A stretch of 64,000 nt of DNA from Planctomycetota bacterium (GTDB lineage Bacteria > Planctomycetota > UBA8108 > SXIK01), in contig CBDCXR010000004.1 of NCBI GenBank assembly GCA_965223845.1, positions 1,056,001-1,120,000 on the forward strand. The letters are read 5' to 3'. The notes beneath the pieces were generated by a model. It made no database searches and was not told the DNA's origin. It worked only from the letters and a program-made list of their open reading frames with translations. Of the stretch, positions 34,293 to 50,330 are shown one piece after another (the first letter of the stretch is position 1; the number at the start of each line of letters is the position of its first letter). The position numbers were made by a program, and so were the translations under genes.

Positions 34293-37200
34293 ATGCGCAT
34301 AAGATGCCTGACGCTCTGGTGCGTTCTCAGCTTGATCGTGTCGCTCGGCTGCGAGTTCGACAGCAGCAACAGCGGCTCGGGCGGCGGCTCGGTAGGTCCC
34401 GGTCCGGGCACGACCGGCGCGGGCGCCGGACCCGGCACGGGGGGGCCGGCGATCACCGCTCCCATCCTCCTCGACATGGTGTTCCAGGGTGATGGAATCT
34501 GCCCTGGCGACGAGGTCACACTGATCGGGCTCAACTTCTCGTCGGACCTCGCGGAGAACGTCGTGACGTTCGCCGCGGGCGTCACGCGGATTCGCGGGCT
34601 TCCCCTCCGCGTCGTCTTTCCGACGGACGACGAGGCGTCGAACGGCCTCGAGTCGCGGCTCACGGTCATCGTCCCCTCGGGCGTCGTGAGCGGAAACGTT
34701 GAGCTGAACGTAGGTGGAATTCCGGCGGGTGCTCGCGGTTTCACGGCGTGCCCCCAGATCATGGCCGTCACGATCGGACGGAACCGCGACGTCGAGGCGA
34801 TGCCGTTCCTCGGTCCGCTCGGATTCGATGCCCAGCGTTCGTTCCTCGAGCTCCACGGGATCAACTTCGGCGAGATCCAGCGCGTGCGGCTCTTCGACTC
34901 GCAGGGAAACGAGGCGAACATCCCGACGAACACGATCCAGCGCGGCGTCAATCAGGGCGGAAACCCCTTCGACCCCGACGCGCCGCCCCCGACCGGGTAC
35001 AGCGTCATCGGGTTCAATCTGAAGGACGATCGGAACGACGTCCCCCTCAGCTTCCCCAATTCCCGGGACAACATGCAGGTGCAGATCGTCGGTCCGGGAG
35101 GGTCGTCGAATATCGTCGAAGTCCCGATCTTCGACGAATCGACCGGTCAGACCGTCGATACGAATCCCGACAACCTCGGCCTCGTCATCAACGGCGTGAA
35201 AGTCCCGACCGGAGTTCGTTCGGGACCCGTTCGAATCCGTTACTCGGTCTACGACGGTCAGGTGAACGCCGCCTGGCGCCTGAACTTCGAGTGGAAGCTC
35301 CTCGAAGATCCCGCCGACGCCTGGCGCATCGCTCGACCGCTCGAAGAGGACGTTCTCCACGACGGCGTCGAGGGCATCCTCGGTGGCACCATTCGCCATC
35401 CGAGCGGTCACCGTCTCTTTCCTGGCGGCGGTACCGTGCGCACGTTCACTTGGGACGCGCAACACGACATCGTCCTCTGTCTACTTGCGGAGGATCAGCC
35501 GATCGAGGACACGCGGCGCGATTTCGCGATCCAGTTCCGCATTCGTCCGGAGATCGACATCGCGGATGCGACGAGAAACATCCGTCTCGACCACACCTGG
35601 GAAACTCCGACGATCGTCTACTACTACATGGAGGATCTCAACGGCGCCGAGTTGGCCGCCAGCGATCTCGACAAAGTCGTCACCGAGGGTTTCCAAGACG
35701 ACGTGCTCGAGGACGCGGAGACGACCGCGCGCTGGGGACCCCCGTCGAACATCGGAGCGCTGATCGGAAGTCTCCCGCAGACCTTGCCGGCGACGTTCGG
35801 TGAGGGACAGGAAGACATCTTCCTCGCCAACCAGCCGCTCGATCCGGCGCTGATTCAGTGGTGGTCGATCGACACCACTCGAATGACGATCTCGTTCAAC
35901 ATCCTCGATGACCAGGGCACGCCGGCCGATCCAAACGACGACATTCAGCAAATCGAGCCGCTCGATCACTTCAACCCTGGTCGAGATGACTTCGAGTTTC
36001 ATTTTCGATCCCTCACGATCGATCCGGATGTCATCGTGCTCGTTTTCGGTGAAAACCCGCTCGTCATTCGTCTCTCCGGTACGGGGAACGATGACGACAT
36101 CGTCTTCCAGTGCGATGGCATCCTGGATTGCGATGGGGTCGACGGCGAATCGACTCCGCGTTCGCTGAGTGCGAACGCCTCCCACATCGGCGGCCGCGGA
36201 GGGATCGGCGGTCCGGGAGGAGGACCCGGCGGCCAGGGCGGTACGCTCGTTCTCGCGAACTCGTCGTTCAACGCGCGCGTCCTGGAGATTATTCTCGCCG
36301 GGGCCGGCGGAAACGACGGGGGCTCGGGCGGGGAGACCACCGCCGCGGTCGAGTTCACGCCGGATGCGGTTTCGCAGTTTTGGGGGGCTCCGGGAGGCGG
36401 TGGTGGCCACCGGCGCCCCGGGGGTGATGGCGATACCCAGTTCCCGAAGCCCGTCGAATACCAGCCGGCTCGCGCCGGTCTCGGTGGTCCGGCTCGCGGC
36501 GAGCCCGCGCAGCTCGAGCAGACGGCTGGATCGGGAGGCGGCGGTGGCGGTGCGTCGATCGGCCGAGTTGGTGTCAACGGGATTCCGACCGGGCTCGTCA
36601 CCGGAGGGGCCGGCGGCGGCGGCGGCGGCGGCGCCGTGCGAATCGTCGCGAGCGGTTCCGTTCGCGTGGGGGGCACCGGACTCGTGAGCGCTGCCGGAGG
36701 CGACGGTGGGATCAGTGGAGGAGATCGGCTCGAGATCCCCGGCGGTGGACAATCTCCGCCCGTGACCGCGGGTGGCCCCGGAGGGGGCGGCAGCGGCGGG
36801 AGCATCGTGATTCGGGCGACCGGATTCGTTGACGCCGGCTGCGAAAGCCTGAACGTCGACGGCGGCGCCGGCGGGATCGCCGGTCGCGTGCAGAACGGAG
36901 TCATCCGCCGGAGCGATGTGAACTTGATCGCTGGATCCGGCTCTGGTTCCCCCGGTTGGATCCGAGTGGAAACGCTGAACGGCGGGTCGCCGAGTTGCGC
37001 CGCGTTCTACGCTGCAACGACCTCGACCGACTGTATCGCCGCGGACGATTCTGTTCTCCCCGTCGCCTCGGTGGAGGGCTTCCCCCCGTCCGGGACGATC
37101 CTCGTCAGCGGCGAGGTCGCGACGACGAGCAACTCTGGCGCGTGCCGTGACACGGGTACGGGCGAATTCGCGACGGAGGAAATGTTCTACGTCGCCGTCG

Positions 37201-39110
37201 ACCCAGTCGCGACGACGCTCACGGTTCAGCGGGGACTGAATGGCACGACGGCGCGTCCGTTCATCGGCGGCGCGAGCATCACATTCAAGGGCGCGATCGT
37301 TCCTCAGGATACGGCCGTCCTCGCGGGCGGTGGGGTCGTCCCGTCGCCGGATGACGTGACCCCCGGGGCCGGACGCGATGGCGAGCTCCACGTCCGGTTC
37401 ATCCCGAGCACGGATCCCGACACCGGCCTGCCGCTCGAGGACCCCGATACCGGCGAGACGATTTCGCTGTGGGTCTTCGACACCGACGTCGGTGCGCTCA
37501 CCGATCCGAACGGCGATGTCGTGCTCGAGGTACGCACGGCGCAGACGAACCCGGGATTCATGGATCTCACCCGTCTCGTCATCGATCAGAATGCGACGCT
37601 TCGCGCGCAAGGGACGCGCCCGTTGATCATCTCGGTCGCCGGCGACGCAGAAATCTCCGGGGCGATCGATGTCTCGGGCTTCGCCGGTGGGGCGCTGCGG
37701 TTCTCGACGGCGGATCCGACCCGACCCCAGCCCGGATTGGGCGGCGGGGGAGGACCCGGCGGCGGAACCGGAGGTGCGGGCGGCCACATCGTCTACCGCA
37801 ACGGCGACGCGAGTGACAAGGATCCCGCGAACACGATTCCCGTGAGCGGCGAGGCTGGTGCCCTTCCCGCCGGAGTTCCCGAAGAGTGGGACATGACGCC
37901 GGTTCCGTACGGAAACGGCGGTGGCGAGAACCAGGCGGTCGTCTTCCCGGCGACCACTCGCGCGATCCCGGGTGCGAGTGTTCGCGGACAGAACTGTCTC
38001 CCCTGCGAGGAAACCGCGGGCGGTGGCGCCGGGGGCGGAAACAACGGTCGCGGAGCCGACGGCGGAGCGGCCGCGGCATTCCCGTCTCAGCTCGCCCCGG
38101 TCGACGCGGCCCTTCACGGAAGTGGAGGCGGTGTGTTCGGCTCGCAGCTCATGCGCTACGAAGGTGGGCTCTTCCTCTTCGGCGCGCCCGGAGGTTCGGG
38201 CGGAGGCGCGACCCCGCACACGTCGTCGTTCTACAACAACGGAATCGCGGCGCCCGGAAGCGTGCTCTTCGGCGGGCGCGGCGTGAGCGTACCGCGCGCC
38301 AAGGAGGCACCTGGGACCGGAGGCGGAGGAGGAGGAGGTTGTCTCTACATCCTCGCTCAAGACTTCTTCCTTCGGCCGGGCGGGCGCATCCTCGCTCGCG
38401 GTGGCGACGCATTCCAGAGCATCGACCTCGGCGGGAACGGCGGCGGCGGGGGAGGCGGAAACGTCCTGATCCGCGTCGCGAACTCGCTCACGCTCTCGCC
38501 GTCGGCGTCCGTCGACGTCAGCGGCGGACGCGCGAACCTCGCCGTGCCGATCGACCCGGGTCAGCAGCTTCCGCTCTACGAGGGCAACCTCCACGGGGCG
38601 AACAACGATCCGGCGCAGTTCGGCTTCTACGGTGGTGTCGGCGGAAACGGCGCGATCGGACGCGTTCGCATCGAAGCGGACCGCGCGTCGCTTGCGATTT
38701 CGTCGGGGCTCAATCCCTATCTTTCGACCGGTCCGTTCCTCCTCGACACGTTCGGCTCGGTCGGAGTCTCGAAGGCCATCGAGCTCGGAGTCGGGCCCGG
38801 AAACGCCGTGTTCGCGACGAATATTTCGCTCTCGGCCAGCTCGGTTCGCTACCACGACTTCGGCCAACCGCTGGGAACGGATTCAGTCGTCGTTTGGGAA
38901 GGAGCCGACGAGAGCCTCGATCGTCACGGCCTCGCGGGTCCGTTCATGCAGCGGATCGATGATCCGCGGCAGCTCGAGTTCAATCAGTTCACGCGGTTCC
39001 GCGTGAATCTGATCTCGAGCTCGTCGGCACAGGAGAGTCAGTCGGTGCGCCAGATTCAGCTCCGCTACTCGTACGCTCCTCGTCCCGACACGGATTGTCT
39101 CTTCCGCTGA
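34293..39110 (+). CDS. Giant Gly-rich lipoprotein (IPT/TIG + two Gly-rich modules)
   Basis: TAAGGAGG RBS, lipobox VSLG-C, IPT motif PGDEVTLIGLNF...VPSGVVSGNV, repeated GGGGGG-x-V-x-I-x-A motifs. Confidence 0.8.
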   Translation: MRIRCLTLWCVLSLIVSLGCEFDSSNSGSGGGSVGPGPGTTGAGAGPGTGGPAITAPILLDMVFQGDGICPGDEVTLIGLNFSSDLAENVVTFAAGVTRIRGLPLRVVFPTDDEASNGLESRLTVIVPSGVVSGNVELNVGGIPAGARGFTACPQIMAVTIGRNRDVEAMPFLGPLGFDAQRSFLELHGINFGEIQRVRLFDSQGNEANIPTNTIQRGVNQGGNPFDPDAPPPTGYSVIGFNLKDDRNDVPLSFPNSRDNMQVQIVGPGGSSNIVEVPIFDESTGQTVDTNPDNLGLVINGVKVPTGVRSGPVRIRYSVYDGQVNAAWRLNFEWKLLEDPADAWRIARPLEEDVLHDGVEGILGGTIRHPSGHRLFPGGGTVRTFTWDAQHDIVLCLLAEDQPIEDTRRDFAIQFRIRPEIDIADATRNIRLDHTWETPTIVYYYMEDLNGAELAASDLDKVVTEGFQDDVLEDAETTARWGPPSNIGALIGSLPQTLPATFGEGQEDIFLANQPLDPALIQWWSIDTTRMTISFNILDDQGTPADPNDDIQQIEPLDHFNPGRDDFEFHFRSLTIDPDVIVLVFGENPLVIRLSGTGNDDDIVFQCDGILDCDGVDGESTPRSLSANASHIGGRGGIGGPGGGPGGQGGTLVLANSSFNARVLEIILAGAGGNDGGSGGETTAAVEFTPDAVSQFWGAPGGGGGHRRPGGDGDTQFPKPVEYQPARAGLGGPARGEPAQLEQTAGSGGGGGGASIGRVGVNGIPTGLVTGGAGGGGGGGAVRIVASGSVRVGGTGLVSAAGGDGGISGGDRLEIPGGGQSPPVTAGGPGGGGSGGSIVIRATGFVDAGCESLNVDGGAGGIAGRVQNGVIRRSDVNLIAGSGSGSPGWIRVETLNGGSPSCAAFYAATTSTDCIAADDSVLPVASVEGFPPSGTILVSGEVATTSNSGACRDTGTGEFATEEMFYVAVDPVATTLTVQRGLNGTTARPFIGGASITFKGAIVPQDTAVLAGGGVVPSPDDVTPGAGRDGELHVRFIPSTDPDTGLPLEDPDTGETISLWVFDTDVGALTDPNGDVVLEVRTAQTNPGFMDLTRLVIDQNATLRAQGTRPLIISVAGDAEISGAIDVSGFAGGALRFSTADPTRPQPGLGGGGGPGGGTGGAGGHIVYRNGDASDKDPANTIPVSGEAGALPAGVPEEWDMTPVPYGNGGGENQAVVFPATTRAIPGASVRGQNCLPCEETAGGGAGGGNNGRGADGGAAAAFPSQLAPVDAALHGSGGGVFGSQLMRYEGGLFLFGAPGGSGGGATPHTSSFYNNGIAAPGSVLFGGRGVSVPRAKEAPGTGGGGGGGCLYILAQDFFLRPGGRILARGGDAFQSIDLGGNGGGGGGGNVLIRVANSLTLSPSASVDVSGGRANLAVPIDPGQQLPLYEGNLHGANNDPAQFGFYGGVGGNGAIGRVRIEADRASLAISSGLNPYLSTGPFLLDTFGSVGVSKAIELGVGPGNAVFATNISLSASSVRYHDFGQPLGTDSVVVWEGADESLDRHGLAGPFMQRIDDPRQLEFNQFTRFRVNLISSSSAQESQSVRQIQLRYSYAPRPDTDCLFR

Positions 39111-41819: not shown

Positions 41820-43364
41820 TCATTCCCACTCGATCGTCGCGGGCGGCTTCGAGCAGAGATCGAGCACGACGCGGTTTACGCCGCGAACTTCATTGCAGAT
41901 GCGAGTCGAAATCCGGGCCAGAATCTCGCGCGGGAGATAGACCCAGTTCGCCGTCATGCCGTCGGTCGACTCGACGACTCGGAGCGCGACCACGTGCTCG
42001 TAGGTCCTCCGATCGCCCATGACTCCGACGGTCTGCACCGGGAGGAGGACGGCGAACGACTGCCAGATGCGATGGTAATTGTCGTAGGTCTGGACTTCCT
42101 CTTGGACGATGCGGTCCGCCGCGCGGAGCGTGTCCAGCCGCTCGTGGGTGACTTCGCCGAGAATGCGAACCGCGAGACCGGGCCCCGGGAACGGCTGCCG
42201 TTCGATCAAAGGTTCCGGGAGGCCGAGCTCGCGCCCGAGGCGGCGAACTTCGTCCTTGAAAAGGAACCGGAGGGGTTCGACGAGCTCGAACCCGAGCTCC
42301 GCGGGCAGGCCACCGACGTTGTGGTGGCTCTTGATCGTCGCCGACGGACCGCCGGTCGGCGACACACTCTCGATGATGTCCGGGTAGAGCGTCCCCTGAG
42401 CGAGAAACGCAACGTCCGCCAGCTCGGCGGCCTTGGCCCGGAAGACGTCGATGAACGTGTGGCCGATGCTCTTTCGCTTCGCCTCCGGGTCGACGATGCC
42501 GGCTAGGTTCGAGACGAATTGCTCGACCGCATCGACGACGTGGAGATTGAGGTGGAAGCTCTCGCGGAACGTGTTCGCCACGTCTGCTCGCTCACCGCTG
42601 CGAAGAAGGCCGTTGTCGACGAAGATGCAGTGAAGCTGCTCGCCGAGCGCGCGGTGGAGAAGCAGCGCCGCGACGGATGAGTCGACGCCCCCGGAGAGTC
42701 CGAGGACGACGTTTCGCGCCCCGACTTGCGCGCGGATCGCGTCCACTTGCTCGGTGATGAAGCTGCTGAGGGTCCAGTCACCGCGGCAGCCGCAAATCGA
42801 CGCGAGGAAGTTCTTGATGAGCGTCGTTCCTTGAGGGGTGTGAGTGACCTCGGGATGGAACTGAAGCCCGATGAATCCGCTCGGACGGTGTCTCACGGCG
42901 GCTAGAGGACAAGTACTCGTCTTGCCGAGGATTTCGAAGTCGCCGGTGAGCGAGCCGTTCTGGCTCACCTGATCGCCGTGGCTCATCCAAACGGTCGTTT
43001 CGCGATCGAGCCCGGCGAAGAGCGGATCGTCGGTGAGGGTGATCGTCGCTTCGCCGTACTCGCGGCGCTCCGACGGGATCACTTCGGCGCCGAGAAGACG
43101 ACATGCGAGCTGCATGCCGTAGCAGATGCCGAGGACGGGCACGTCGAGCTGAAGAAGCTCGGGATTGAGCTGGGGAGCCCCGTCTTCGTAGACGCTCGCC
43201 GGACCACCGGAGAGGATCACCCCGCGGAGGCCTTCCGAACGGAGCTGGGCGGGCGGCGTGTCGAACGGAAGGATCTCGCAGTACACGTTCTGCTCTCGGA
43301 CGCGCCGTGCGATGAGCTGAGTGTACTGGGAACCGAAATCGAGAATGGCGATGGTCTCTGCCAT
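41820..43364 (-). CDS. guaA: GMP synthase (glutamine-hydrolysing)
   Basis: LDFGSQY, GICYGMQ, QFHPEV, SGGVDSS, IKSHHNVGGLP, KPPATIEWE. Confidence 0.98.
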   Translation of the reverse strand: MAETIAILDFGSQYTQLIARRVREQNVYCEILPFDTPPAQLRSEGLRGVILSGGPASVYEDGAPQLNPELLQLDVPVLGICYGMQLACRLLGAEVIPSERREYGEATITLTDDPLFAGLDRETTVWMSHGDQVSQNGSLTGDFEILGKTSTCPLAAVRHRPSGFIGLQFHPEVTHTPQGTTLIKNFLASICGCRGDWTLSSFITEQVDAIRAQVGARNVVLGLSGGVDSSVAALLLHRALGEQLHCIFVDNGLLRSGERADVANTFRESFHLNLHVVDAVEQFVSNLAGIVDPEAKRKSIGHTFIDVFRAKAAELADVAFLAQGTLYPDIIESVSPTGGPSATIKSHHNVGGLPAELGFELVEPLRFLFKDEVRRLGRELGLPEPLIERQPFPGPGLAVRILGEVTHERLDTLRAADRIVQEEVQTYDNYHRIWQSFAVLLPVQTVGVMGDRRTYEHVVALRVVESTDGMTANWVYLPREILARISTRICNEVRGVNRVVLDLCSKPPATIEWE

Positions 43365-43460
43365 GAACTGTCTCTCTCGGAGTCAGCGCGTCCGCGAAGG
43401 CGGCTGCCGCTTCACTCGCCGAATCGGGTGAGAGCTGCGGGAGAGCTCCCAACCCATCAC

Positions 43461-44969
43461 CTAGGGGTTGTTCTTCACGCCGAGCACGGGCTCTTCGTAC
43501 GACTGGAGGCTGTGTACGAAACCTTCGCGCTGCGCGGACGGACTGCGCCGCTCGTAGCGGAGGGTCCCGCTCGCGAGCGCTTCGTGGAGCGCGTCGATCG
43601 ATCGGCAGCCGAGATCCTGGAGCGCCTGGCGGAGGCTCTGCACGATGTAGGCGATCAGATCGACGACGGAGCCTTTGTCGACGACGACGCCCGAGACGCC
43701 CTGAGCGACCTTGATCGCGTTGTCGTCGTACAGGTAGCGCTTGCCGCCGCCCTTCTGAATCGCTTCGGCCGAAGCCATGCCGCGGTACTTCTTGACGCGC
43801 ACGCCGTCCTGATAGAAGTACTCGCCCGGCGACTCTTGAGTGCCCGCCAGCATCGATCCCATCATGCCGGCGCTCGCGCCGCACGCGAGAGCCTTCGCGA
43901 GTCCGCCGGTCGTGGCGATGCCGCCGTCCGCGACGACCGGAACGCCGGCCTCGCGGCAGTACTTCGAGCAATAGTAAACCGCCGTCGCCTGCGCACGACC
44001 GCAAGCCATCGTTTCCTGCGTCGTACAGATCGAGCCGGGTCCCATCCCGACACGAATTCCGTCGGCGCCCGCGCGAATGAGGTTCTCGCACTGCTGCGTG
44101 GTGACGACGTTTCCCGCGATGACGTCGATGTCGGGACACTCCGTCTTCACGAAGCGGATCATTTCCTCTTGAAAGATCGAATCGCCCTGCGCGGAGTCCA
44201 CCACGATGGCGTCGACACCCGCGGCGGCGAGACCGAGGATACGATCGCGGTCCTCGGGGCGCGTCGACACCGCGGCGCCGACGCGGAGCTGCTTCCGCTC
44301 GTCCTTGCACGCCCACGGAAAGTCGCGGTTCTTCTTGAGGTCGGTGCGCGAGACGAGCGAGACGAGGAGCCCCGCGCTGTTCACGATCGGAAGCTTTCCC
44401 TTCTTCGATTCGCGGAGGAGCTCGTTGGCGCGAGGAAGGGAGACTCCTTCGGGCGCGGTGATGAGATCCGTCACCATCATCTCACGGAGAGGGCGGTCGC
44501 GGTTGCTCTCGAAATCGATGTCGCGACTCGTCACGATGCCGACGAGGCGGGTTTCGAGAGTGCCGTCCTCCGTGATCGGGATGCCGGAGAAGCCATCGCG
44601 CTCGCGGATCGCATCGATGTCGCGGATGCGGTGGTCGGGGCTGAGGACGATCGGGTCGGTGATGAAGCCGTTCTCGAACCGCTTGACCTTTCGGACCTCG
44701 CGGATCTGATCGTCGGGCGTCGCGTTGTAGTGGATGATGCCGATGCCGCCCTGGAGCGCCACGCCGATCGCCATCTTCGACTCGGTCACCGTGTCCATGG
44801 GCGAGCTCACGATGGGAGCCTTGAGGCTGATGCGGCGCGTGATGCGGGTCGACAGGTCGACGTCGTGGGCCCCGAAGTCGATGTGACCGGGTAGCAGAAT
44901 GAAGTCGTTGTAGGTCAGACCGTGCCGGCTCTCGAAGAGCTCGCGGGCGCTTTCGCCGTCTCGCTGCAT
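43461..44969 (-). CDS. guaB: IMP dehydrogenase with CBS pair (eukaryote-type sequence)
   Basis: SSPMDTVTE, catalytic loop [19 protein letters not shown]; start moved to ATG 44969 (GGAGAGG RBS). Confidence 0.96.
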
Positions 44970-45724
44970 CGTCACCTCTCCATGAGTCGCCGTCTCGCCT
45001 CCGGCGCCCGGCCGCGTCGGAACGGCGACCGCGGAGGCCGGACGAGGCGAGCTCGCGTTCCGGTGGCCTGAATCGGCCGGGCGAAACCCCGCGCGGCGAA
45101 CGCGCGATCGGCAAGTGCGACCCGACTCGGGTCGGGGGGTTCCCCGTTCGAGCGCCGTCGTCTCGGCGCAGCTTCGCGCACTGCCCAGCGGCTTCCCGAC
45201 CGCCGACAGGCGGTTTCGATCGAGCTCAGGAAATCCGTCCGCCGGCTTCGGCCGGCGCCGCGAGGGGTGCCTTCCACCGAAGTTGGAGCCTGCTTGCCGA
45301 GGGGGCTTCGTCGCTGGACGGGCCCGCTTGCCGAAGGGAATGAGCCACCACGGCGGCGTCGGCGGTGGAGGCCGAGCACGCCGATGGGCGGTCAAAGGAA
45401 GGATAAGAGAATAAGTACGCGGTTCCGGAAATCAAGGAAATAGCCGTGCTTCGCGGCTCGCGCGCCGTGACTCCTGTTTGCGATTAGATCCCGATCGCGC
45501 GAAAGCGGGCCGGGTGCTTCCCGACTCCAAATCAGCACCCGCTCGAGTCGGGTGAGATTGAAATGGGACCATCCCACGCCTATCATAGGCCACGTGCTCA
45601 AACCGTTTCTAAACAAACGCTTAAGAGAGTTTTCGGACGGCCGAACCGGCCGTGCACGGACCGGATTCTTCGATCGCGGTCCGCGCGCTCCGGCGCCGAA
45701 CGAGAACGACCAGGAGACCTCTGA

Positions 45725-46801
45725 ATGAGTGAGCCTGCCGCTTCGCCCGCCCCGTCGGGCGGCTCGCCCGATGATCTCGCCGCCGTCGAACTTCTTCAGA
45801 ATAAGCACCAGCAGATCCGCGATGAGCTAGCGAAGGTCATCGTCGGTCAGGACGAAGTGATCGAGCAGATCCTGATCTCGATCTTCGCTCGCGGACATTG
45901 CCTCCTCGTGGGTGTGCCGGGACTCGCGAAGACGCTGCTCATCAGTACGCTCGCGCGCTGTCTCTCGCTCTCGTTCTCTCGGATTCAGTTCACCCCCGAT
46001 CTCATGCCCTCCGATATCACCGGAACCGAGGTGATTCAGGAGGATCGAAGCACGGGCGAGCGCGAGTTTCGATTCCTCAAGGGGCCGGTGTTCGCCAATG
46101 TCATCCTCGCGGACGAGATCAACCGGACGCCGCCCAAGACGCAGGCCGCTCTGCTCGAGGCGATGCAGGAGCGCCAGGTGACGGCGGGGGGAAAGAAGCA
46201 CGAGCTCGAGGAGCCGTTCTTCGTTCTCGCGACTCAGAACCCGATCGAGCAGGAGGGTACGTATCCGCTGCCGGAGGCGCAGCTCGACCGGTTCATGTTC
46301 AATATCAGCGTCGACTATCCGAGTGAGGAGGAGGAGGTCGAGATCATGCGGCGGACGACGGTGACGCAAGACGCCGACGTCCAGGCGATCGTCTCCGGCG
46401 AAGAGATCCTCCAGCTGCAGGAGCTCGTCCGTCGCGTACCGGTGACCGACGAGATGATCCGCTACGTCCTCCGGCTCACGCGCGCGACGCGGATTTCGAA
46501 GGATGAGGCGCCCGACTACCTGAAGGAGTGGCTCCAGTGGGGCGCGGGGCCGCGCGCTTCGCAGTTTCTCATCCTCGGCGGCAAGGCCCGGGCGATTCTC
46601 CACGGTCGCACGTACGTCTCGCCCGAGGACATTCAAGCGGTTGCGTACCCCGTTCTCCGCCATCGGCTGCTCACGAATTTCAGCGCCGAGGCCGACGGGA
46701 TAACGTCGCAGACGATCATCGAGCGTCTCGTCAAGGAGACGCCGGTAAACGAGACGAGATCGCTCAAGGGATCGGGTACGCCGCGCGTGCTCGGCTCCTA
46801 G
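45725..46801 (+). CDS. moxR: MoxR-family AAA+ ATPase
   Basis: [63 protein letters not shown]. Confidence 0.95.
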
Positions 46802-46897
46802 GGGAAGCCCAACGTCGACGACTCACGACCTACGGCGTCTCGCCGCTATGCTCACCGAATCGGCTGAGAATGCGGATTAGAGAGAGGAGACCCCGCG

Positions 46898-47869
46898 ATG
46901 GGGGCTGAACGCTACCTCGATCCGAAGGTGCTGGCGAAGATCGCTCGACTCGAGCTCAAGGCTCGGTTGATCGTCGAGGGGTACATCTCCGGCCTTCACC
47001 GAAGCCCCTACCACGGGTTCAGCATCGAGTTTGCGGAGCACCGCGAGTACGTCCCCGGGGACGATATCCGTCACATCGACTGGAAGGTGTACGGGCGTTC
47101 CGATCGCTACTACATCAAACAGTACGAGGAGGAGACGAACCTCGGCGCGCACCTCCTCCTCGACGCGTCGGAGTCGATGGCTTACCCGTACGCGCGCGGC
47201 GACAAGGCGGCCGTCGAGCGCGCGTCGTCCGCGCCGACCGAAGCGAAGAGCGGCCCACTGGGCTCCGCCCGAATCTCGAAGTACGAGTACGGCACCTACA
47301 TCGCGGCGTCCCTCGGGTACCTGATTCTCAAGCAGCAGGACGCGGCGGGAATTACGCTCTTCGACGACCGCGTGCGCCACTCTGTGTCGCCGAGCTCGAA
47401 TTTGCGGCAGATCGAGACCATCTGCGAAACCGCGCTGAAGGGGGAGCTCAAGCAGACGACGAATGTCGGGGCGATGCTTCAGGAGTTCGCCGATCGGGTG
47501 AAGAAGAAGAGCCTCGTCGTCATCATTTCGGATCTGCTCGACGGGATCGAGAACGTGCAGCGCGGTCTCCGCCAGCTCCGCCAGCGCGGTCACGAGGTGA
47601 TCGTGTTCCACGTCCTCGACCGAGAGGAGCTGCGCTTTCCGTTTCAGAGGATGACCCTGTTCGAGGGGTTGGAGGGTCTCCCCGAGCTGGTCGCCGACCC
47701 GCGCGCCCTTCGCAAAGGGTATCTCGAGGAGCTCGAAGCGTATCTCGAGGAGGTGCGGCGCACCTGCCGCGACCATCTGATCGACTACGTTCTCCTCGAC
47801 ACCGAGGAGAAGCTCCACGTCGCCCTCACATCGTACCTGGCGAAGCGTTCGGGGGCACAGCGCGCGTGA
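46898..47869 (+). CDS. DUF58 (vWA-like) protein
   Basis: GLHRSPYHGFSIEFAEHREYVPGDDIRHIDWK, LDASESM, IISDL. Confidence 0.92.
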   Translation: MGAERYLDPKVLAKIARLELKARLIVEGYISGLHRSPYHGFSIEFAEHREYVPGDDIRHIDWKVYGRSDRYYIKQYEEETNLGAHLLLDASESMAYPYARGDKAAVERASSAPTEAKSGPLGSARISKYEYGTYIAASLGYLILKQQDAAGITLFDDRVRHSVSPSSNLRQIETICETALKGELKQTTNVGAMLQEFADRVKKKSLVVIISDLLDGIENVQRGLRQLRQRGHEVIVFHVLDREELRFPFQRMTLFEGLEGLPELVADPRALRKGYLEELEAYLEEVRRTCRDHLIDYVLLDTEEKLHVALTSYLAKRSGAQRA

Positions 47870-47921
47870 ACGAACTAGCGACGCGCACACGGGCGACGAA
47901 CCGGAGGAGAGCCCCGCGGCG

Positions 47922-50330
47922 ATGGGATTCCTGACGAACTTCTTCCTTCAGCCCTGGATGCTCGCCGGTACGGCGCTCGTCTCCGTGCCGATCATCATCT
48001 ATCTCATCCAGCGGCACCGCTACCGCCGGCGTCCGTGGGCGGCGATGGAGTTCCTGCTTCGCGCGGTGAAGCGCCACCAGCGGCGCATTCAGCTGCAGAA
48101 CCTTCTTCTCCTCGTGGTGCGCTGTCTCATCATCGCATTCCTCGCGCTCGCGATGGCGCGGCCGGTGCTCCGGCAAGCCGGGTTCGTGGCGGGGTCGAGC
48201 GAGAATCAGAACTGGCTGCTCGCGCTCGATACGTCCTTCAGCATGGACTATCGCGTCGAGGGAACGAGTCGCTTCGATGCTGCACGCGAGTCGATTCTCG
48301 CGATGTACGGGACACTCATCCATCCGGGGGATCGGGTGGCCCTCGTGACGTTCGAGGCGCAGCCGCGTGTCGTCATGCCGCCGACCTTCGTCGACGAGGA
48401 CGCGTATCCGCTCCAGCTGAGACGGGAACTCGAGGATCTCCGACTCTCGGCCGAATCGGTCGACCTCGGGAGCAGCTTCGCGCAGCTCGTCGAGACCTCC
48501 GGCGAATTCGCCGCGACCGTGGGCGGCGGTGGGGCGGTCGGCGCGGTGCCGAAGCACGTCGTCGTCTTCAGTGACCTCCAGCGTAAGGACTGGATCACCG
48601 AGGACGGGCCGCGCCACCCTGCGCTCGGACGTCTCGCGGAGCAGGTGAACGAGCAGGGCGGCCAGTTTTTCCTCGCCGAGTTCGGCGTGGACGAAGAGCC
48701 GGTGAACGTCGCCGTGACCGATCTATCGATTCACCCGCCGCAACTCGGCGAGGACGTATGGGCCGAGATCCGTGTTACCGTGCGCAACTTCAGCGCCAAG
48801 GATCTCGAGAACCTCGACCTGACGATCGAGGTCGATGCCGATCCCGACGCGGAGGACGCCGAACCTCAGCTCGGAGGCGTCGTCCGCGTCCCGGCGGGCG
48901 GGACGGTCTCGCGCTCCATGCGCTACCGCTTCGCGACTCCCGGCGATCACACGATCGTCGCGCGACTTCGATCCGACGGGCTCGAGCTCGACAACGAGCG
49001 TTATCTCATCGCGCCGGTGAAGAAGGAGCTGAGCGTCCTTCTCGTCGACGGTGAGCCGACGGCCGATCCGACCGAACGCGAAACCTTTCATCTCGAAGTC
49101 GCGCTACTTCCGGAAGACGATTCGCTCTCGAACGTAGAAGGACGGTGGACGCCGTTCGTGCCGCGCTACGTCCTTCCCGAGCAGCTCGACGAGGTCGCGT
49201 GGGAGGATCACATCCTCGTCATTCTCGCGAACGTGAGTGCGCTCGGAGAGGGCTCGATCGCGTCTCTCAAGGAGTACGTGCGCGACGGCGGAGCGCTCGC
49301 GGTCTTTCTCGGTCCGAACGTCGATCCCCAGCTCTACGCGCAGCTCTTTTCTGAAGACGATGCGCCCGGGCTGCTCCCCTTCCGCCTCGGCGAGGTGCGC
49401 GGCGACCGGCGCTTCCCGGTTCACCTCGCAGCTTCCGATCTTTCGCATCCCGTCGTTCGCTACTTCGAGGAGCGGCGCGAGGCGACGATGCTCCACCGCC
49501 CGCTGATCTCGTTCTACAAGTACTTCTCTCTCGCGGAGCCGCCGCGAGAGGATTCGGGCGCGCGGACCCTCTTTCGCTACACCGATATCGATCAGACTCC
49601 CGCCGTCCTCGACGTCCCCTACGGGCGCGGTCGCGTCTTTTGGTTCAACTCGACGGCGGATCAGGCGTGGAACGATCTCTCGGACTGGCCGGACTTCGTC
49701 GTCCTCTTGTACGAGTCCGCTTCGTACCTCGTCCGCTTCGGCGCGGAGGCGACGAATCTCGGGGTCGGCGACTACTACCGCCGGGCGTACACCGCCGAGA
49801 ACTACGCGTCCGAGGTGACCCTCACGATGCCCGAGTGGGACGGGATCGCAGGGGCCGAGCGAGCACGAACGATCAACAAGGTCATGCGCCGGGACTCGAT
49901 CGAATCGGACGAATCCAACGAGTCTGCGCCCGATGCCGGCGGAGGCGACTCCGGCGGTGACGGGCGCGGCGTCGACGGGGAAGCGGCCGAAGGGTTCGAA
50001 ATCGTCCACGACGACACGTCCGTGCCGGGAGTCTACCGCGTCGACCTTCGCCGACCGCACACCCCGATCGAGGATTCGGTCGAGTACTTCTGCGTGAACG
50101 TCTCGACCGAGGAGAGCGATCTCTCCCCCCTCCGCGACGGGGACATCGCGACGCACGTTCCGGACTTCGAGTACAAGGTCCTCGACATCTCTCGGCGCGC
50201 CGACGAGATCGCGTCGGAGGAGAACGCGATGCGCGGGCGTGAATACTGGAAGTGGTTTCTCGCCATCGTGCTCGCGCTCCTCGTGACCGAATCGGTCCTC
50301 GCGTGGCTCTTCGGGAGGAGGTCGGTATGA
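47922..50330 (+). CDS. BatA-domain + vWA + Ig-like + GATase-like membrane protein
   Basis: BatA motif PIIIYLI...WAAMEFL...LLLLVVR...ARP, MIDAS LDTSFSM/FSDLQ, LKEYVRDGGAL, C-terminal TM (LLVTESVLAW). Confidence 0.85.
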   Translation: MGFLTNFFLQPWMLAGTALVSVPIIIYLIQRHRYRRRPWAAMEFLLRAVKRHQRRIQLQNLLLLVVRCLIIAFLALAMARPVLRQAGFVAGSSENQNWLLALDTSFSMDYRVEGTSRFDAARESILAMYGTLIHPGDRVALVTFEAQPRVVMPPTFVDEDAYPLQLRRELEDLRLSAESVDLGSSFAQLVETSGEFAATVGGGGAVGAVPKHVVVFSDLQRKDWITEDGPRHPALGRLAEQVNEQGGQFFLAEFGVDEEPVNVAVTDLSIHPPQLGEDVWAEIRVTVRNFSAKDLENLDLTIEVDADPDAEDAEPQLGGVVRVPAGGTVSRSMRYRFATPGDHTIVARLRSDGLELDNERYLIAPVKKELSVLLVDGEPTADPTERETFHLEVALLPEDDSLSNVEGRWTPFVPRYVLPEQLDEVAWEDHILVILANVSALGEGSIASLKEYVRDGGALAVFLGPNVDPQLYAQLFSEDDAPGLLPFRLGEVRGDRRFPVHLAASDLSHPVVRYFEERREATMLHRPLISFYKYFSLAEPPREDSGARTLFRYTDIDQTPAVLDVPYGRGRVFWFNSTADQAWNDLSDWPDFVVLLYESASYLVRFGAEATNLGVGDYYRRAYTAENYASEVTLTMPEWDGIAGAERARTINKVMRRDSIESDESNESAPDAGGGDSGGDGRGVDGEAAEGFEIVHDDTSVPGVYRVDLRRPHTPIEDSVEYFCVNVSTEESDLSPLRDGDIATHVPDFEYKVLDISRRADEIASEENAMRGREYWKWFLAIVLALLVTESVLAWLFGRRSV

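Follow-up and report, generated by a model that had tools for sequence, protein, structure and literature searches.

Results

The guaB-guaA locus

The window, which denotes the whole stretch of DNA analysed (64 kb), carries on its minus strand a guaB gene for a eukaryote-type IMP dehydrogenase (IMPDH) of 502 aa (43461..44969; protein P0001, hereafter the query), assigned from its translation, its PF00478, CBS and TIGR01302 matches and its PDB matches. The reading frame translated from the window runs from an ATG at 44969 to a TAG stop at 43463-43461, and a Shine-Dalgarno-like GGAGAGG can be read directly in the sequence 5 nt upstream of the ATG (44975..44981, minus strand). Since homologues of 501-505 aa cover 99-100% of the query in alignment, we preferred this ATG over an upstream TTG at 45395. 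The strings of the window protein quoted in an earlier reading of the sequence alone (84 protein letters, and AQG) all occur in this translation. That sequence-only reading had described an IMPDH of eukaryote type whose gene is paired with guaA, which the locus bears out: guaA, encoding a glutamine-hydrolysing GMP synthase of 514 aa with GATase, NAD_synthase-like and GMP_synt_C domains (41820..43364, minus strand), starts downstream of guaB on the same strand after a spacer of 96 nt (43365..43460, minus strand). From this strand and spacing, we infer that the two genes are co-transcribed. In the ORF map, a region of 755 nt with a GC content of 0.669 (44970..45724, no strand assigned) lies between guaB and a divergent MoxR-type ATPase gene and is presumed to be the promoter region. 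The Rfam search at gathering thresholds gave no match in the whole 64-kb window, including the 96-nt spacer and the 755-nt upstream region, and on this ground a riboswitch, or any other RNA of a known family, was dropped as a candidate for the region before guaB. The genes flanking guaB are bacterial (guaA, ribH, ftsY, nusB and MoxR), and its composition (GC 0.653, GC3 0.863) may be compared with GC 0.63-0.68 and GC3 0.78-0.86 for the neighbours.

Identity of the enzyme and likeness to eukaryotic IMPDHs

In the search with curated family models, the query scored 621.2 bits against TIGR01302 (cut-off 481.5, model positions 1-450), and PF00478 matched residues 17-486 with 431 bits (model positions 1-345). 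The architecture is that of a TIM-barrel catalytic domain with an inserted Bateman (CBS-pair) domain; a CBS match was obtained at residues 162-213 and the alignment with IMPDH1 is unbroken across both CBS motifs. The catalytic Cys315, the IMP-ribose Asp348 and the Arg396/Tyr395 dyad of the flap, the role of which is given in PMC9375230, are all in the query. Within the bacterial clade described below, all 25 members have the catalytic Cys, the Arg and the Asp, and 24 have the Tyr. We looked for a second, canonical guaB in the genome and found none, the single PF00478 match in its 7.93 Mb (91.7% complete) being the query itself. The guaB product would accordingly act as the sole working IMP dehydrogenase of the organism (IMP + NAD+ -> XMP + NADH), catalysing the first committed step to GMP and probably expressed together with guaA.

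The highest phmmer scores against the PDB were those of IMPDH1 chains (615 bits) and IMPDH2 (604 bits), followed by two fungal enzymes (about 560 bits) and a further group at 500 bits, while the best chains not of eukaryote type scored 330-383 bits (383 and 376 for the top two). The chains 3tsb and 1zfj, which are the B. anthracis and S. pyogenes enzymes according to Buey et al. 2015 (PMC4660370), scored 353 and 344 bits, respectively. Over 493 trimmed columns, the query is 45-61% identical to 19 named eukaryotes (median 57) and 39-45% identical to 16 canonical bacterial GuaBs (median 42). Among the 50%-cluster representatives, its best match comes from a stramenopile and is 58% identical over query residues 3-492; the IMPDH1 alignment spans residues 3-493. 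These values confirm that the eukaryote-like character of the guaB product is far beyond chance.

With the eukaryotic enzymes (human IMPDH1 and IMPDH2, Ashbya gossypii), the query shares this end-to-end alignment, the catalytic residues, the 'KKGK' motif, the GDP1, GDP2 and GDP3 site residues named by Buey et al. 2015, the Arg/Gln pair at positions relevant to mycophenolic acid (MPA) and the C-terminal ...SAQxEGxVHxLxSYE segment. It differs from them in its bacterial host, in the place of its gene in a guaB-guaA pair and in sequence, the identity being about 57%. The vertebrate N-terminal tail is missing, and so, in both the query and its clade, is the insertion that the animal and fungal rows have in the flap; instead of an ...EKRLF/Y ending there is a clade-specific tail (11 protein letters). 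Canonical bacterial GuaB (e.g. P. aeruginosa, B. anthracis, S. pyogenes and most Planctomycetota) has the same reaction, fold and Bateman insertion, and its gene the same position before guaA. However, its 'RIEK' motif has Glu, the two MPA positions are occupied by Lys and Glu, human R224 is replaced by Val or Ile and K242 by Gly, and its Bateman segment lacks 4 residues of the query in the three canonical rows shown in the alignment.

Regulatory and inhibitor-binding positions

The 'KKGK' motif was defined by Buey et al. 2015 (PMC4660370) by a Gly in place of the Glu of the prokaryotic 'RIEK', and the corresponding region of the query reads SKKGKLPIV. This Gly is found in 25 of 25 clade members, in 6 of 6 Melainabacteria and in 16 of 19 eukaryotes, compared to Glu in 15 of 16 canonical GuaBs. 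The roles of the GTP/GDP site residues are given in PMC4660370; in what follows, human numbering was mapped by hand on the IMPDH1 phmmer alignment. Asn at N198 and Arg at R224 (a site-2 residue, R208 in the query) both occur in 25/25 clade members versus 0/16 canonical sequences, and Lys at K242 in 25/25, where the canonical residue is Gly (15/16). Lys at K238 is also present throughout the clade (25/25), but it is non-discriminating because 14/16 canonical bacteria have it as well. The site-3 residues N198, L227 and K238 correspond to N182, L211 and K222 of the query (25/25, 24/25 and 25/25 in the clade). In Ashbya numbering, query N100 and G101 (N118/G119, 24/25 and 25/25) and K226 (K245, 25/25) were matched by motif and are less certain as equivalents; L178 (L196) is conserved in 25/25 and V206 (L224) is hydrophobic in 25/25.

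GTP-type allostery had been suggested as a possibility for this protein. The part of that suggestion that concerns residues stands, those for GTP/GDP sites 2 and 3 being conserved, and the regulation itself is argued from homology. [quoted passage not shown] This model is carried over at about 57% identity and should be read as such. Canonical enzymes are described as regulated by MgATP, by GTP at site 2 or by (p)ppGpp (PMC9462843).

Query R306 and Q423 correspond to positions 322 and 441 of human IMPDH2, where the Arg and Gln of the MPA-sensitive type had been noted from the sequence alone; all 25 clade members have both, compared to Lys (15 of 16) and Glu (16 of 16) in canonical GuaB. Arg322 is linked to MPA selectivity, and the Arg/Gln pair at the NAD site predicts a eukaryote-like sensitivity to MPA. 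Reported Ki values for MPA are nanomolar in eukaryotic enzymes, compared to micromolar values in canonical bacterial ones. The Gln/Glu difference between the classes is given in PMC6336804. The vertebrate filament interface consists of the vertebrate-specific residues 1-12, of which Tyr12 bridges to Arg356 of the next octamer (PMC7018514). Because query residue 3 is aligned with human residue 15, the protein starts at about human residue 13, with no equivalent of residues 1-12 and hence of Tyr12. The missing N-terminal interface speaks against filaments of the vertebrate type, and the earlier suggestion of filament formation is to this extent not supported.

Phylogenetic placement

Maximum likelihood (ML) trees were estimated under LG+G4 for a hand-picked set of 94 rows (29 cluster representatives, 40 of 160 loci, 20 eukaryotic proteins known by name or by a database label, and 4 proteins from bacteria) and under LG+C20 PMSF for a 53-row subset, and a quick tree was made of 106 rows. 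In a further tree of 146 rows, the representatives of 440-560 aa were retained from 150. The eukaryote-type group was supported by 99/99 in the 94-row tree, whose bootstrap correlation of 0.966 was not fully settled, by 93/97 in the 53-row tree and by an SH-aLRT of 97 in the quick tree. Positioned inside this radiation is the bacterial clade that holds the query (100/100, 100/100 and SH-aLRT 99, respectively), with some Planctomycetota including anammox bacteria, Leptospiraceae, other spirochaetes, Armatimonadota and Abditibacteriota as members. Two more bacterial groups, Vampirovibrionia and some Chlamydiota, also lie within the radiation. Joining the clade to the 16 canonical GuaBs made the likelihood worse by 74.45 lnL with a p-AU of 0.029, a value that passes the 0.05 level by a modest margin. 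Placement within canonical GuaB, the result against which the sequence-only reading had set its proposal, is thus disfavoured.

That proposal of a bacterial clade sister to, or the source of, the eukaryotic enzymes stands as far as membership of the eukaryote-type group is concerned; the ML backbone is compatible with a clade that is sister to, source of or derived from the eukaryotic enzymes. Constraining the 27 eukaryotic rows as one clade cost 6.75 lnL (p-AU 0.43), so that eukaryote monophyly is not rejected, and the grouping of this bacterial clade with the opisthokonts was weak (85/53 and 88/93) and gone from the 106-row quick tree. The eukaryotic sampling is narrow because the 94-row set was hand-picked from representatives, loci and named proteins: it covers stramenopiles, fungi, three animals, one named plant, one plant-like sequence and presumed protists, and no Discoba, Metamonada, Amoebozoa, red algae or alveolates are named in it. 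Chrysophaeum, Mycoemilia, Olea and Aphelenchoides are the named cluster representatives, two more have a eukaryote-database or MMETSP label, and four carry just the generic name 'IMP dehydrogenase'. Eight representatives were counted as probable protists; one has an MMETSP cluster mate, seven lie on contigs of 1.5-2 kb and P0143 on a contig of 17.8 kb. Two intermediate representatives were assigned by their position in the 106-row tree to Patescibacteria and Chlamydiota, and in a genome scan with another such sequence, P0148, no relative exceeded 42% identity.

Distribution of the two types

Of the 201 Planctomycetota genomes, at least 37 have the type that is 59-71% identical to the query, and all other matches listed are at most 48% identical. 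All sampled members of the query's own class (10 of 10) and of the groups f36 (8 of 8), f57 (7 of 7) and f26 (5 of 5) have the eukaryote type. Named loci with this type belong to Kuenenia, Scalindua, Leptospira interrogans and Armatimonadota; Abditibacteriota, Chlamydiota and cultured Leptospira strains also carry it. Other IMPDH types are found in the majority of Planctomycetota and in part of the Armatimonadota and Chlamydiota. Among Planctomycetota, guaB and guaA are no more than 1 kb apart in 13 of 33 genomes that have the eukaryote type versus 52 of 88 that have the canonical type; besides the query's own genome, 12 sampled genomes and 19 named loci show this arrangement of the eukaryote-type guaB with guaA. 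The identity of guaA to other Planctomycetota is even (55-66%), with no two-mode split, unlike guaB. This suggests that guaA is of ordinary bacterial descent. In G104, a genome of the eukaryote type, a further IMPDH scores high (466 bits), and the replacement discussed below is therefore not universal.

Discussion

Probable displacement in situ beside guaA

Gene displacement in situ, or xenologous displacement, is a concept of the comparative-genomics literature. As in such cases in conserved operons, a foreign orthologue would occupy the position of the native gene and the partner gene would be unchanged. The query gene holds the slot of canonical guaB, which precedes guaA in 52 of 88 other Planctomycetota genomes, and for this reason we consider the native type to have been replaced; horizontal transfer with loss of the native gene, as the sequence-only reading had proposed, is what this arrangement points to. 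In this reading guaB would be a xenologue, descending from the lineage that supplies eukaryotic IMPDHs and not from the canonical GuaB lineage of most Planctomycetota, and the slot before guaA would have been taken over in situ. Since the composition of guaB is fully host-like, the displacement would have taken place long ago. The same type appears to have been inherited within whole Planctomycetota families, and its presence in Leptospiraceae, other spirochaetes, Armatimonadota and Abditibacteriota implies that it also moved between bacterial phyla. Taken as a whole, a eukaryote-type IMPDH that displaced the native type in situ, present as the sole copy and with eukaryote-like regulation and MPA sensitivity expected from its residues, is in our judgement a probable explanation of the locus.

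Direction of transfer

As for direction, we lean, with somewhat better than an even chance, towards one old transfer from a eukaryote to a bacterium followed by spread among bacteria. The reverse would be that a bacterium with three-site GTP regulation gave its IMPDH gene to the eukaryotic stem lineage, and that the genes of planctomycetes, spirochaetes, Armatimonadota, Vampirovibrionia and Chlamydiota are surviving relatives of the donor. We regard this as rather unlikely. In its favour, eukaryote monophyly is not rejected, three distinct bacterial groups lie in the radiation, and in the 106-row tree a pair of Chlamydiota branches off at the base, before the other 65 rows of the eukaryote-type group (SH-aLRT 91); the three groups and the basal Chlamydiota fit a bacterial origin about as well. 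No archaeal genome was among the best 80 prokaryotic matches to the eukaryote profile, and the clade is without the opisthokont flap insertion. However, phyla are interleaved within the query's clade against the species tree and its members are 60-75% identical to the query, which is about the identity between eukaryotic supergroups, so that a late spread fits better than an ancient bacterial family. The prevalence of other types in most Planctomycetota and in some Armatimonadota and Chlamydiota also speaks against a bacterial source, as do the three ML trees, in all of which the bacterial clades are flanked on either side, with weak support, by eukaryotic groups. Life attached to eukaryotic cells or inside them is described for Vampirovibrionia and Chlamydiota, and that two of the three bacterial groups live in this way favours uptake from hosts. 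[quoted passage not shown] If true, the eukaryotic control of GTP homeostasis would have been inherited from a specific bacterial group.

Other explanations

Displacement by a eukaryote-type gene has also to be set against three other explanations. An ordinary, vertically inherited bacterial GuaB, with eukaryote-like motifs from convergence or slow evolution, would agree with the usual guaB-guaA arrangement and the host-like composition, but we consider it very improbable and reject it on the whole-length likeness and the trees. The likeness extends over the full length (58% over residues 3-492) and is not in the motifs alone, the supports of 99/99 and 93/97 set the query apart from canonical GuaB, and a canonical placement is 74 lnL worse; moreover, identities within the phylum fall in two modes (59-71%, or 48% and less), and the query has the 4-residue Bateman segment absent from the three canonical rows. 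It is just as improbable that the protein is a paralogue of other activity in the IMPDH family, e.g. a GMP reductase or a GuaB1/GuaB3-like protein. These families do share the fold and give significant scores, but among the curated models only TIGR01302 exceeds its cut-off, and those of GuaB1, GMP reductase and GuaB3 remain at 101-250 bits against cut-offs of 342-675 (NF052358, 243 bits vs 675; TIGR01303, 222 vs 563; TIGR01304, 101 vs 342; TIGR01305, 126 vs 492; TIGR01306, 128 vs 466), and such a paralogue was rejected on these cut-offs. The genome would also be left without any other IMPDH to make XMP, and the XMP-using guaA adjoins the gene. Least probable of all is eukaryotic contamination or mis-assembly of the genome record: such cases are known (two MAG contigs, labelled Planctomycetaceae and Chitinophagales, have plant-like IMPDH frames with 5 and 3 in-frame stops), but it is contradicted here by a position amid bacterial genes on a multi-megabase contig (the protein's record has 7,869,199 bases), by the absence of stops and introns, a GC3 of 0.86 as in the neighbours and a Shine-Dalgarno site, by the recurrence of the guaA arrangement in the 12 other genomes and 19 named loci, and by the occurrence of the type in cultured Leptospira strains.

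Relation to known cases

A eukaryote-type enzyme in bacteria has a counterpart in the opposite direction. The eukaryotic parasites Cryptosporidium and Tritrichomonas have a bacterial-type, MPA-resistant IMPDH. There, too, an IMPDH of the 'wrong' domain serves as the working enzyme, but the present case is the reverse, with bacteria that have the eukaryote type. The H. pylori and C. parvum IMPDHs are given as 60% alike in PMC6336804. Our literature search, to which subscription journals were mostly closed, found no paper that describes an IMPDH of eukaryote type from bacteria, whether Planctomycetota, Leptospira or others. Such sequences may nevertheless be included in Supplementary Figs 10B and 13A of PMC4660370, where bacteria are compared for site 3, and in the tree of 20,059 IMPDHs in Fig. 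S10 of bioRxiv 10.64898/2026.01.19.700455.

Conclusions

The third, GTP-only allosteric site is said to be exclusive to eukaryotic IMPDHs and absent from bacterial ones (PMC4660370, PMC9462843). Conservation of the site-3 residues across a broad bacterial clade offers a direct and cheap test of this statement, and the clade could supply easily expressed bacterial proteins for the study of the 'eukaryotic' switch. The finding also bears on the question of the origin of eukaryotic IMPDH. It provides a clean case in which a housekeeping gene of the type of another domain replaces the native one in a conserved pair and is then inherited by whole families. As the clade includes Leptospira, some of them pathogenic, and anammox bacteria, whose IMPDH is predicted to be host-like towards mycophenolic acid and to differ in this from canonical bacterial enzymes, the finding bears on the selectivity of IMPDH-directed compounds in these organisms.

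Identity and gene context

The 502-codon open frame of guaB (window 43461-44969, minus strand, ATG start, TAG stop) encodes a protein in which Pfam finds the IMPDH domain at full length (431 bits) along with CBS, and which scores 621 bits against the NCBIfam equivalog TIGR01302 (IMP dehydrogenase; cut-off 481.5). Identity as a GMP reductase, GuaB1 or GuaB3 was rejected, every such NCBIfam model being under its cut-off. The sequence-only reading had called the protein a eukaryote-type IMPDH encoded before guaA, and all strings that it quoted are present in the translation. Among sequences of solved structures, IMPDH1 chains score 615 bits and IMPDH2 chains 604, followed by two enzymes that we take to be fungal (about 560) and a further group (about 500); the chains after those groups score 383 and 376 bits, and 3tsb and 1zfj score 353 and 344. 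Apart from the latter two, the source organisms of these chains are our assumption. Buey et al. 2015 (PMC4660370) assign 3tsb to B. anthracis and 1zfj to S. pyogenes. Of the representatives of a library clustered at 50% identity, the best match is Chrysophaeum taylorii IMPDH, from a stramenopile (58% identical, 616 bits), and the next is the fungal one of Mycoemilia scoparia (57%). Over 493 trimmed columns, the protein is 45-61% identical to 19 named eukaryotic proteins (median 57) versus 39-45% to 16 canonical bacterial GuaBs (median 42), two of which are from Planctomycetaceae. These values bear out the eukaryote-type assignment, and guaA (GATase + GMP_synt_C) begins 96 nt 3' of guaB on the same strand.

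The sequence GGAGAGG lies 5 nt ahead of the guaB ATG on the minus strand. A longer frame is possible from a TTG at 45395; the start was taken as 44969 because homologues of 501-505 aa match the 502-aa form across 99-100% of its length in alignment. The genes ribH, ftsY and nusB are further neighbours on one side of guaB-guaA, and directly upstream of nusB is a 1605-aa ORF (34293-39110, plus strand) whose N-terminus is signal-like and which contains extended Gly-rich tracts (GGxGG runs). Divergent from guaB, genes for a MoxR-type AAA ATPase, a DUF58 protein and an 802-aa BatA/VWA protein (45725-50330, plus strand) form a row that resembles an aerotolerance operon and is ordinary in appearance. 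The stretch of 755 nt between guaB and the MoxR-type gene (44970-45724, GC 67%), to which no gene is assigned, is longer than bacterial promoter regions usually are; no Rfam family matched anywhere in the 64-kb window. GC (0.653) and GC3 (0.863) of guaB are the same as those of neighbour genes. The proposed search for a second, canonical guaB returned exactly one PF00478 match in the whole genome (7.93 Mb, 4 contigs, 91.7% complete), the guaB of the window.

Phylogeny and direction of transfer

Three trees were computed: a careful LG+G4 search on 94 rows and 493 columns, whose bootstrap was short of fully settled; an LG+C20+F+G4 tree by PMSF on 53 rows; and a quick LG+G4 tree on 106 rows. Supports are paired values, or SH-aLRT alone for the last. 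A eukaryote-type group stands apart from canonical and intermediate sequences in the 94-row tree (59 rows, 99/99) and is recovered in the others (93/97 and 97). The clade of the window protein, hereafter the guaB clade, has supports of 100/100 (25 rows), 100/100 and 99 (29 rows, Abditibacteriota now included), and these well-supported parts are common to all three analyses. Joining the guaB clade to the 16 canonical GuaBs was 74.45 lnL worse in an AU test (p 0.029). From the trees and AU tests, therefore, the gene lies within the eukaryote-type lineage, as the sequence-only reading had supposed, and not among canonical GuaBs.

The trees do not resolve how plants, stramenopiles, opisthokonts, presumed protists and the bacterial groups join along the backbone. 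A pairing of the guaB clade with opisthokonts has 85/53 in the 94-row tree and 88/93 in the 53-row tree and is absent from the 106-row tree; the guaB clade is without the flap insertion of animal and fungal rows. Placing the 19 named eukaryotes and 8 presumed protist representatives in a single clade costs 6.75 lnL in an AU test, which does not reject eukaryote monophyly (p 0.43). On balance, transfer from a eukaryote to a bacterium is mildly favoured; that bacteria were instead the source of eukaryote-type IMPDH we consider rather improbable.

In the 94-row tree, Melainabacteria form a group of 7 rows (97/95), one of them a 'eukprot' row from a transcriptome. P0382, a eukprot transcriptome entry, groups within the Melainabacteria/Vampirovibrio IMPDHs in the 94- and 106-row trees, which points either to contamination of the culture by a bacterium or to a transfer. 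Chlamydiota hold two distinct non-canonical types (loci L206 and L211 versus L228 and L229): in the 106-row tree one pair is basal within the eukaryote-type group and the other is with the 'intermediate' protein P0134 on the canonical side. A metagenomic IMPDH group (P0140, P0148, P0149, P0132 and relatives; 100/97 in the 94-row tree) is 44-49% identical to the window protein, and some of its 'eukaryotic' positions retain Arg or Gln; for P0148, the single member scanned, no relative above 42% identity was found in 185,579 prokaryotic species genomes.

Distribution among bacteria

A match was found in 192 of 201 sampled genomes across the phylum, and those listed, with 84 weaker matches lying below them, show two identity modes. 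In at least 37 genomes the protein is 59-71% identical to the window protein (three are partial genes, assigned by identity), and the other matches listed are at 39-48%. Every sampled member of the window's class (10/10, own genome counted) and of three Planctomycetota families (f36, 8/8; f57, 7/7; f26, 5/5) has the 59-71% type. Named records with this type, at 59-75% identity, include Planctomycetota MAGs, Brocadiales (Kuenenia, Scalindua and others), many Leptospira species including L. interrogans, Turneriella, further spirochaete MAGs and Armatimonadota. A eukaryote-profile scan added Abditibacteriota and two Chlamydiota, with no archaea among its best 80 matches. Vampirovibrio and other Melainabacteria have a related form, 62-64% identical to that of Chrysophaeum.

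Some labels call for caution. L061, a contig labelled 'Thermodesulfobacteriota', carries an IMPDH almost identical to one from Scalindua (branch lengths about 0.02), and L039:3885-6174, from a 'Proteobacteria' MAG, groups inside Planctomycetota with the same guaB-guaA arrangement; both look like binning or labelling errors and not additional phyla. IMPDH reading frames with 5 in-frame stops (L225:301-1893, Planctomycetaceae UBA12365 MAG) and 3 (L226:196-1857, Chitinophagales MAG) group with plant sequences (SH-aLRT 99) and are probably eukaryotic (green-lineage) intron-bearing DNA binned into bacterial MAGs.

Probable replacement in front of guaA

Positions of guaB and guaA were compared in 121 genomes with both genes listed. 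The two lie within 1 kb in 13/33 eukaryote-type genomes, including every listed member of the window's class, and in 52/88 canonical-type genomes, while guaA identity to the window copy forms a smooth 55-66% spread over both. Given this spacing and the smooth guaA identity, displacement of the native guaB by a foreign one before the native guaA is the simplest reading, which agrees with the replacement of the native gene suggested beforehand. Among named loci, guaB is followed by guaA in 19/80, all planctomycete-type and none from Leptospira, Brocadiales, Armatimonadota or Vampirovibrio; in a part of the loci the downstream sequence is too short for a judgement.

Of five further eukaryote-type genomes, one has that IMPDH-family gene alone and three have an additional, much weaker member (283-307 bits). 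In the fifth, the planctomycete genome G104 (12.3 Mb, 3% contamination), two IMPDH genes score strongly (G104:C214:20462-21856 and G104:C99:74113-75552): the eukaryote type, which adjoins guaA, at 441 bits and a second gene at 466 bits. Either the two types coexist in G104 or one of the genes is a contaminant.

Inhibitor and allosteric sites

We take Arg322 of human IMPDH2 to act at the mycophenolic acid (MPA)/NAD site. Its position is Arg in 25/25 rows of the guaB clade and Lys in 15/16 canonical rows, and that of Q441 is Gln in 25/25 and Glu in 16/16, so that both MPA-linked residues named beforehand hold throughout the clade. PMC6336804 describes the Gln/Glu difference as class-specific, at the key MPA-binding residue. 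With Arg and Gln at these NAD-site positions, the enzyme is predicted to have eukaryote-like MPA sensitivity.

According to PMC4660370, GTP and GDP inhibit Ashbya and human IMPDH via three Bateman-domain sites; the Gly of 'KKGK' is a eukaryotic mark, with the Glu of 'RIEK' in prokaryotes; human R224 binds GDP2, with D226 and R231 in the Bateman interface; and N198, L227 and K238 contact the non-canonical third GDP. The third site is presented there as eukaryote-specific, and likewise in PMC9462843 and the review PMC9375230. We mapped site positions by hand on the IMPDH1 alignment; the residue counts come from the 94-row alignment (25 guaB-clade versus 16 canonical rows). The KKGK glycine is Gly in 25/25 versus Glu in 15/16; N198 is Asn in 25/25 versus 0/16; R224 is Arg in 25/25 versus Val, Ile or other, never Arg; L227 is Leu in 24/25 versus Ile in 13/16; and K242 is Lys in 25/25 versus Gly in 15/16. 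D226 is Asp in all rows of both (25/25, 16/16), and K238 (Lys in 25/25) has no discriminating value because it is Lys in 14/16 canonical rows too. Six Melainabacteria rows are identical to the guaB clade at all listed GTP-site positions. These residues are those of the suggested GTP-type allostery, and from their conservation GTP and GDP are predicted to compact the octamer.

According to PMC7018514, residues 1-12 build the vertebrate filament interface, in which Tyr12 bridges to Arg356. Filament formation had also been put forward beforehand; vertebrate-type filaments are not expected here because the protein begins at about human residue 13.

Discussion

Taken together, the window probably encodes a functional, sole, eukaryote-type GuaB that was horizontally acquired and fixed in the guaBA slot. 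The sequence-only reading thus stands for the eukaryote type, the native replacement and the GTP- and MPA-site residues, and lacks support for the filaments. The enzyme family and its mechanism are already known. Our literature searches, of incomplete coverage, returned no paper on this bacterial clade, and an earlier publication may exist. Relative to the literature searched, what is new is the host range of eukaryote-type IMPDH and its in-place replacement of the native gene; judged by its residues, the guaB clade would also run opposite to the published generalisation on the third site.
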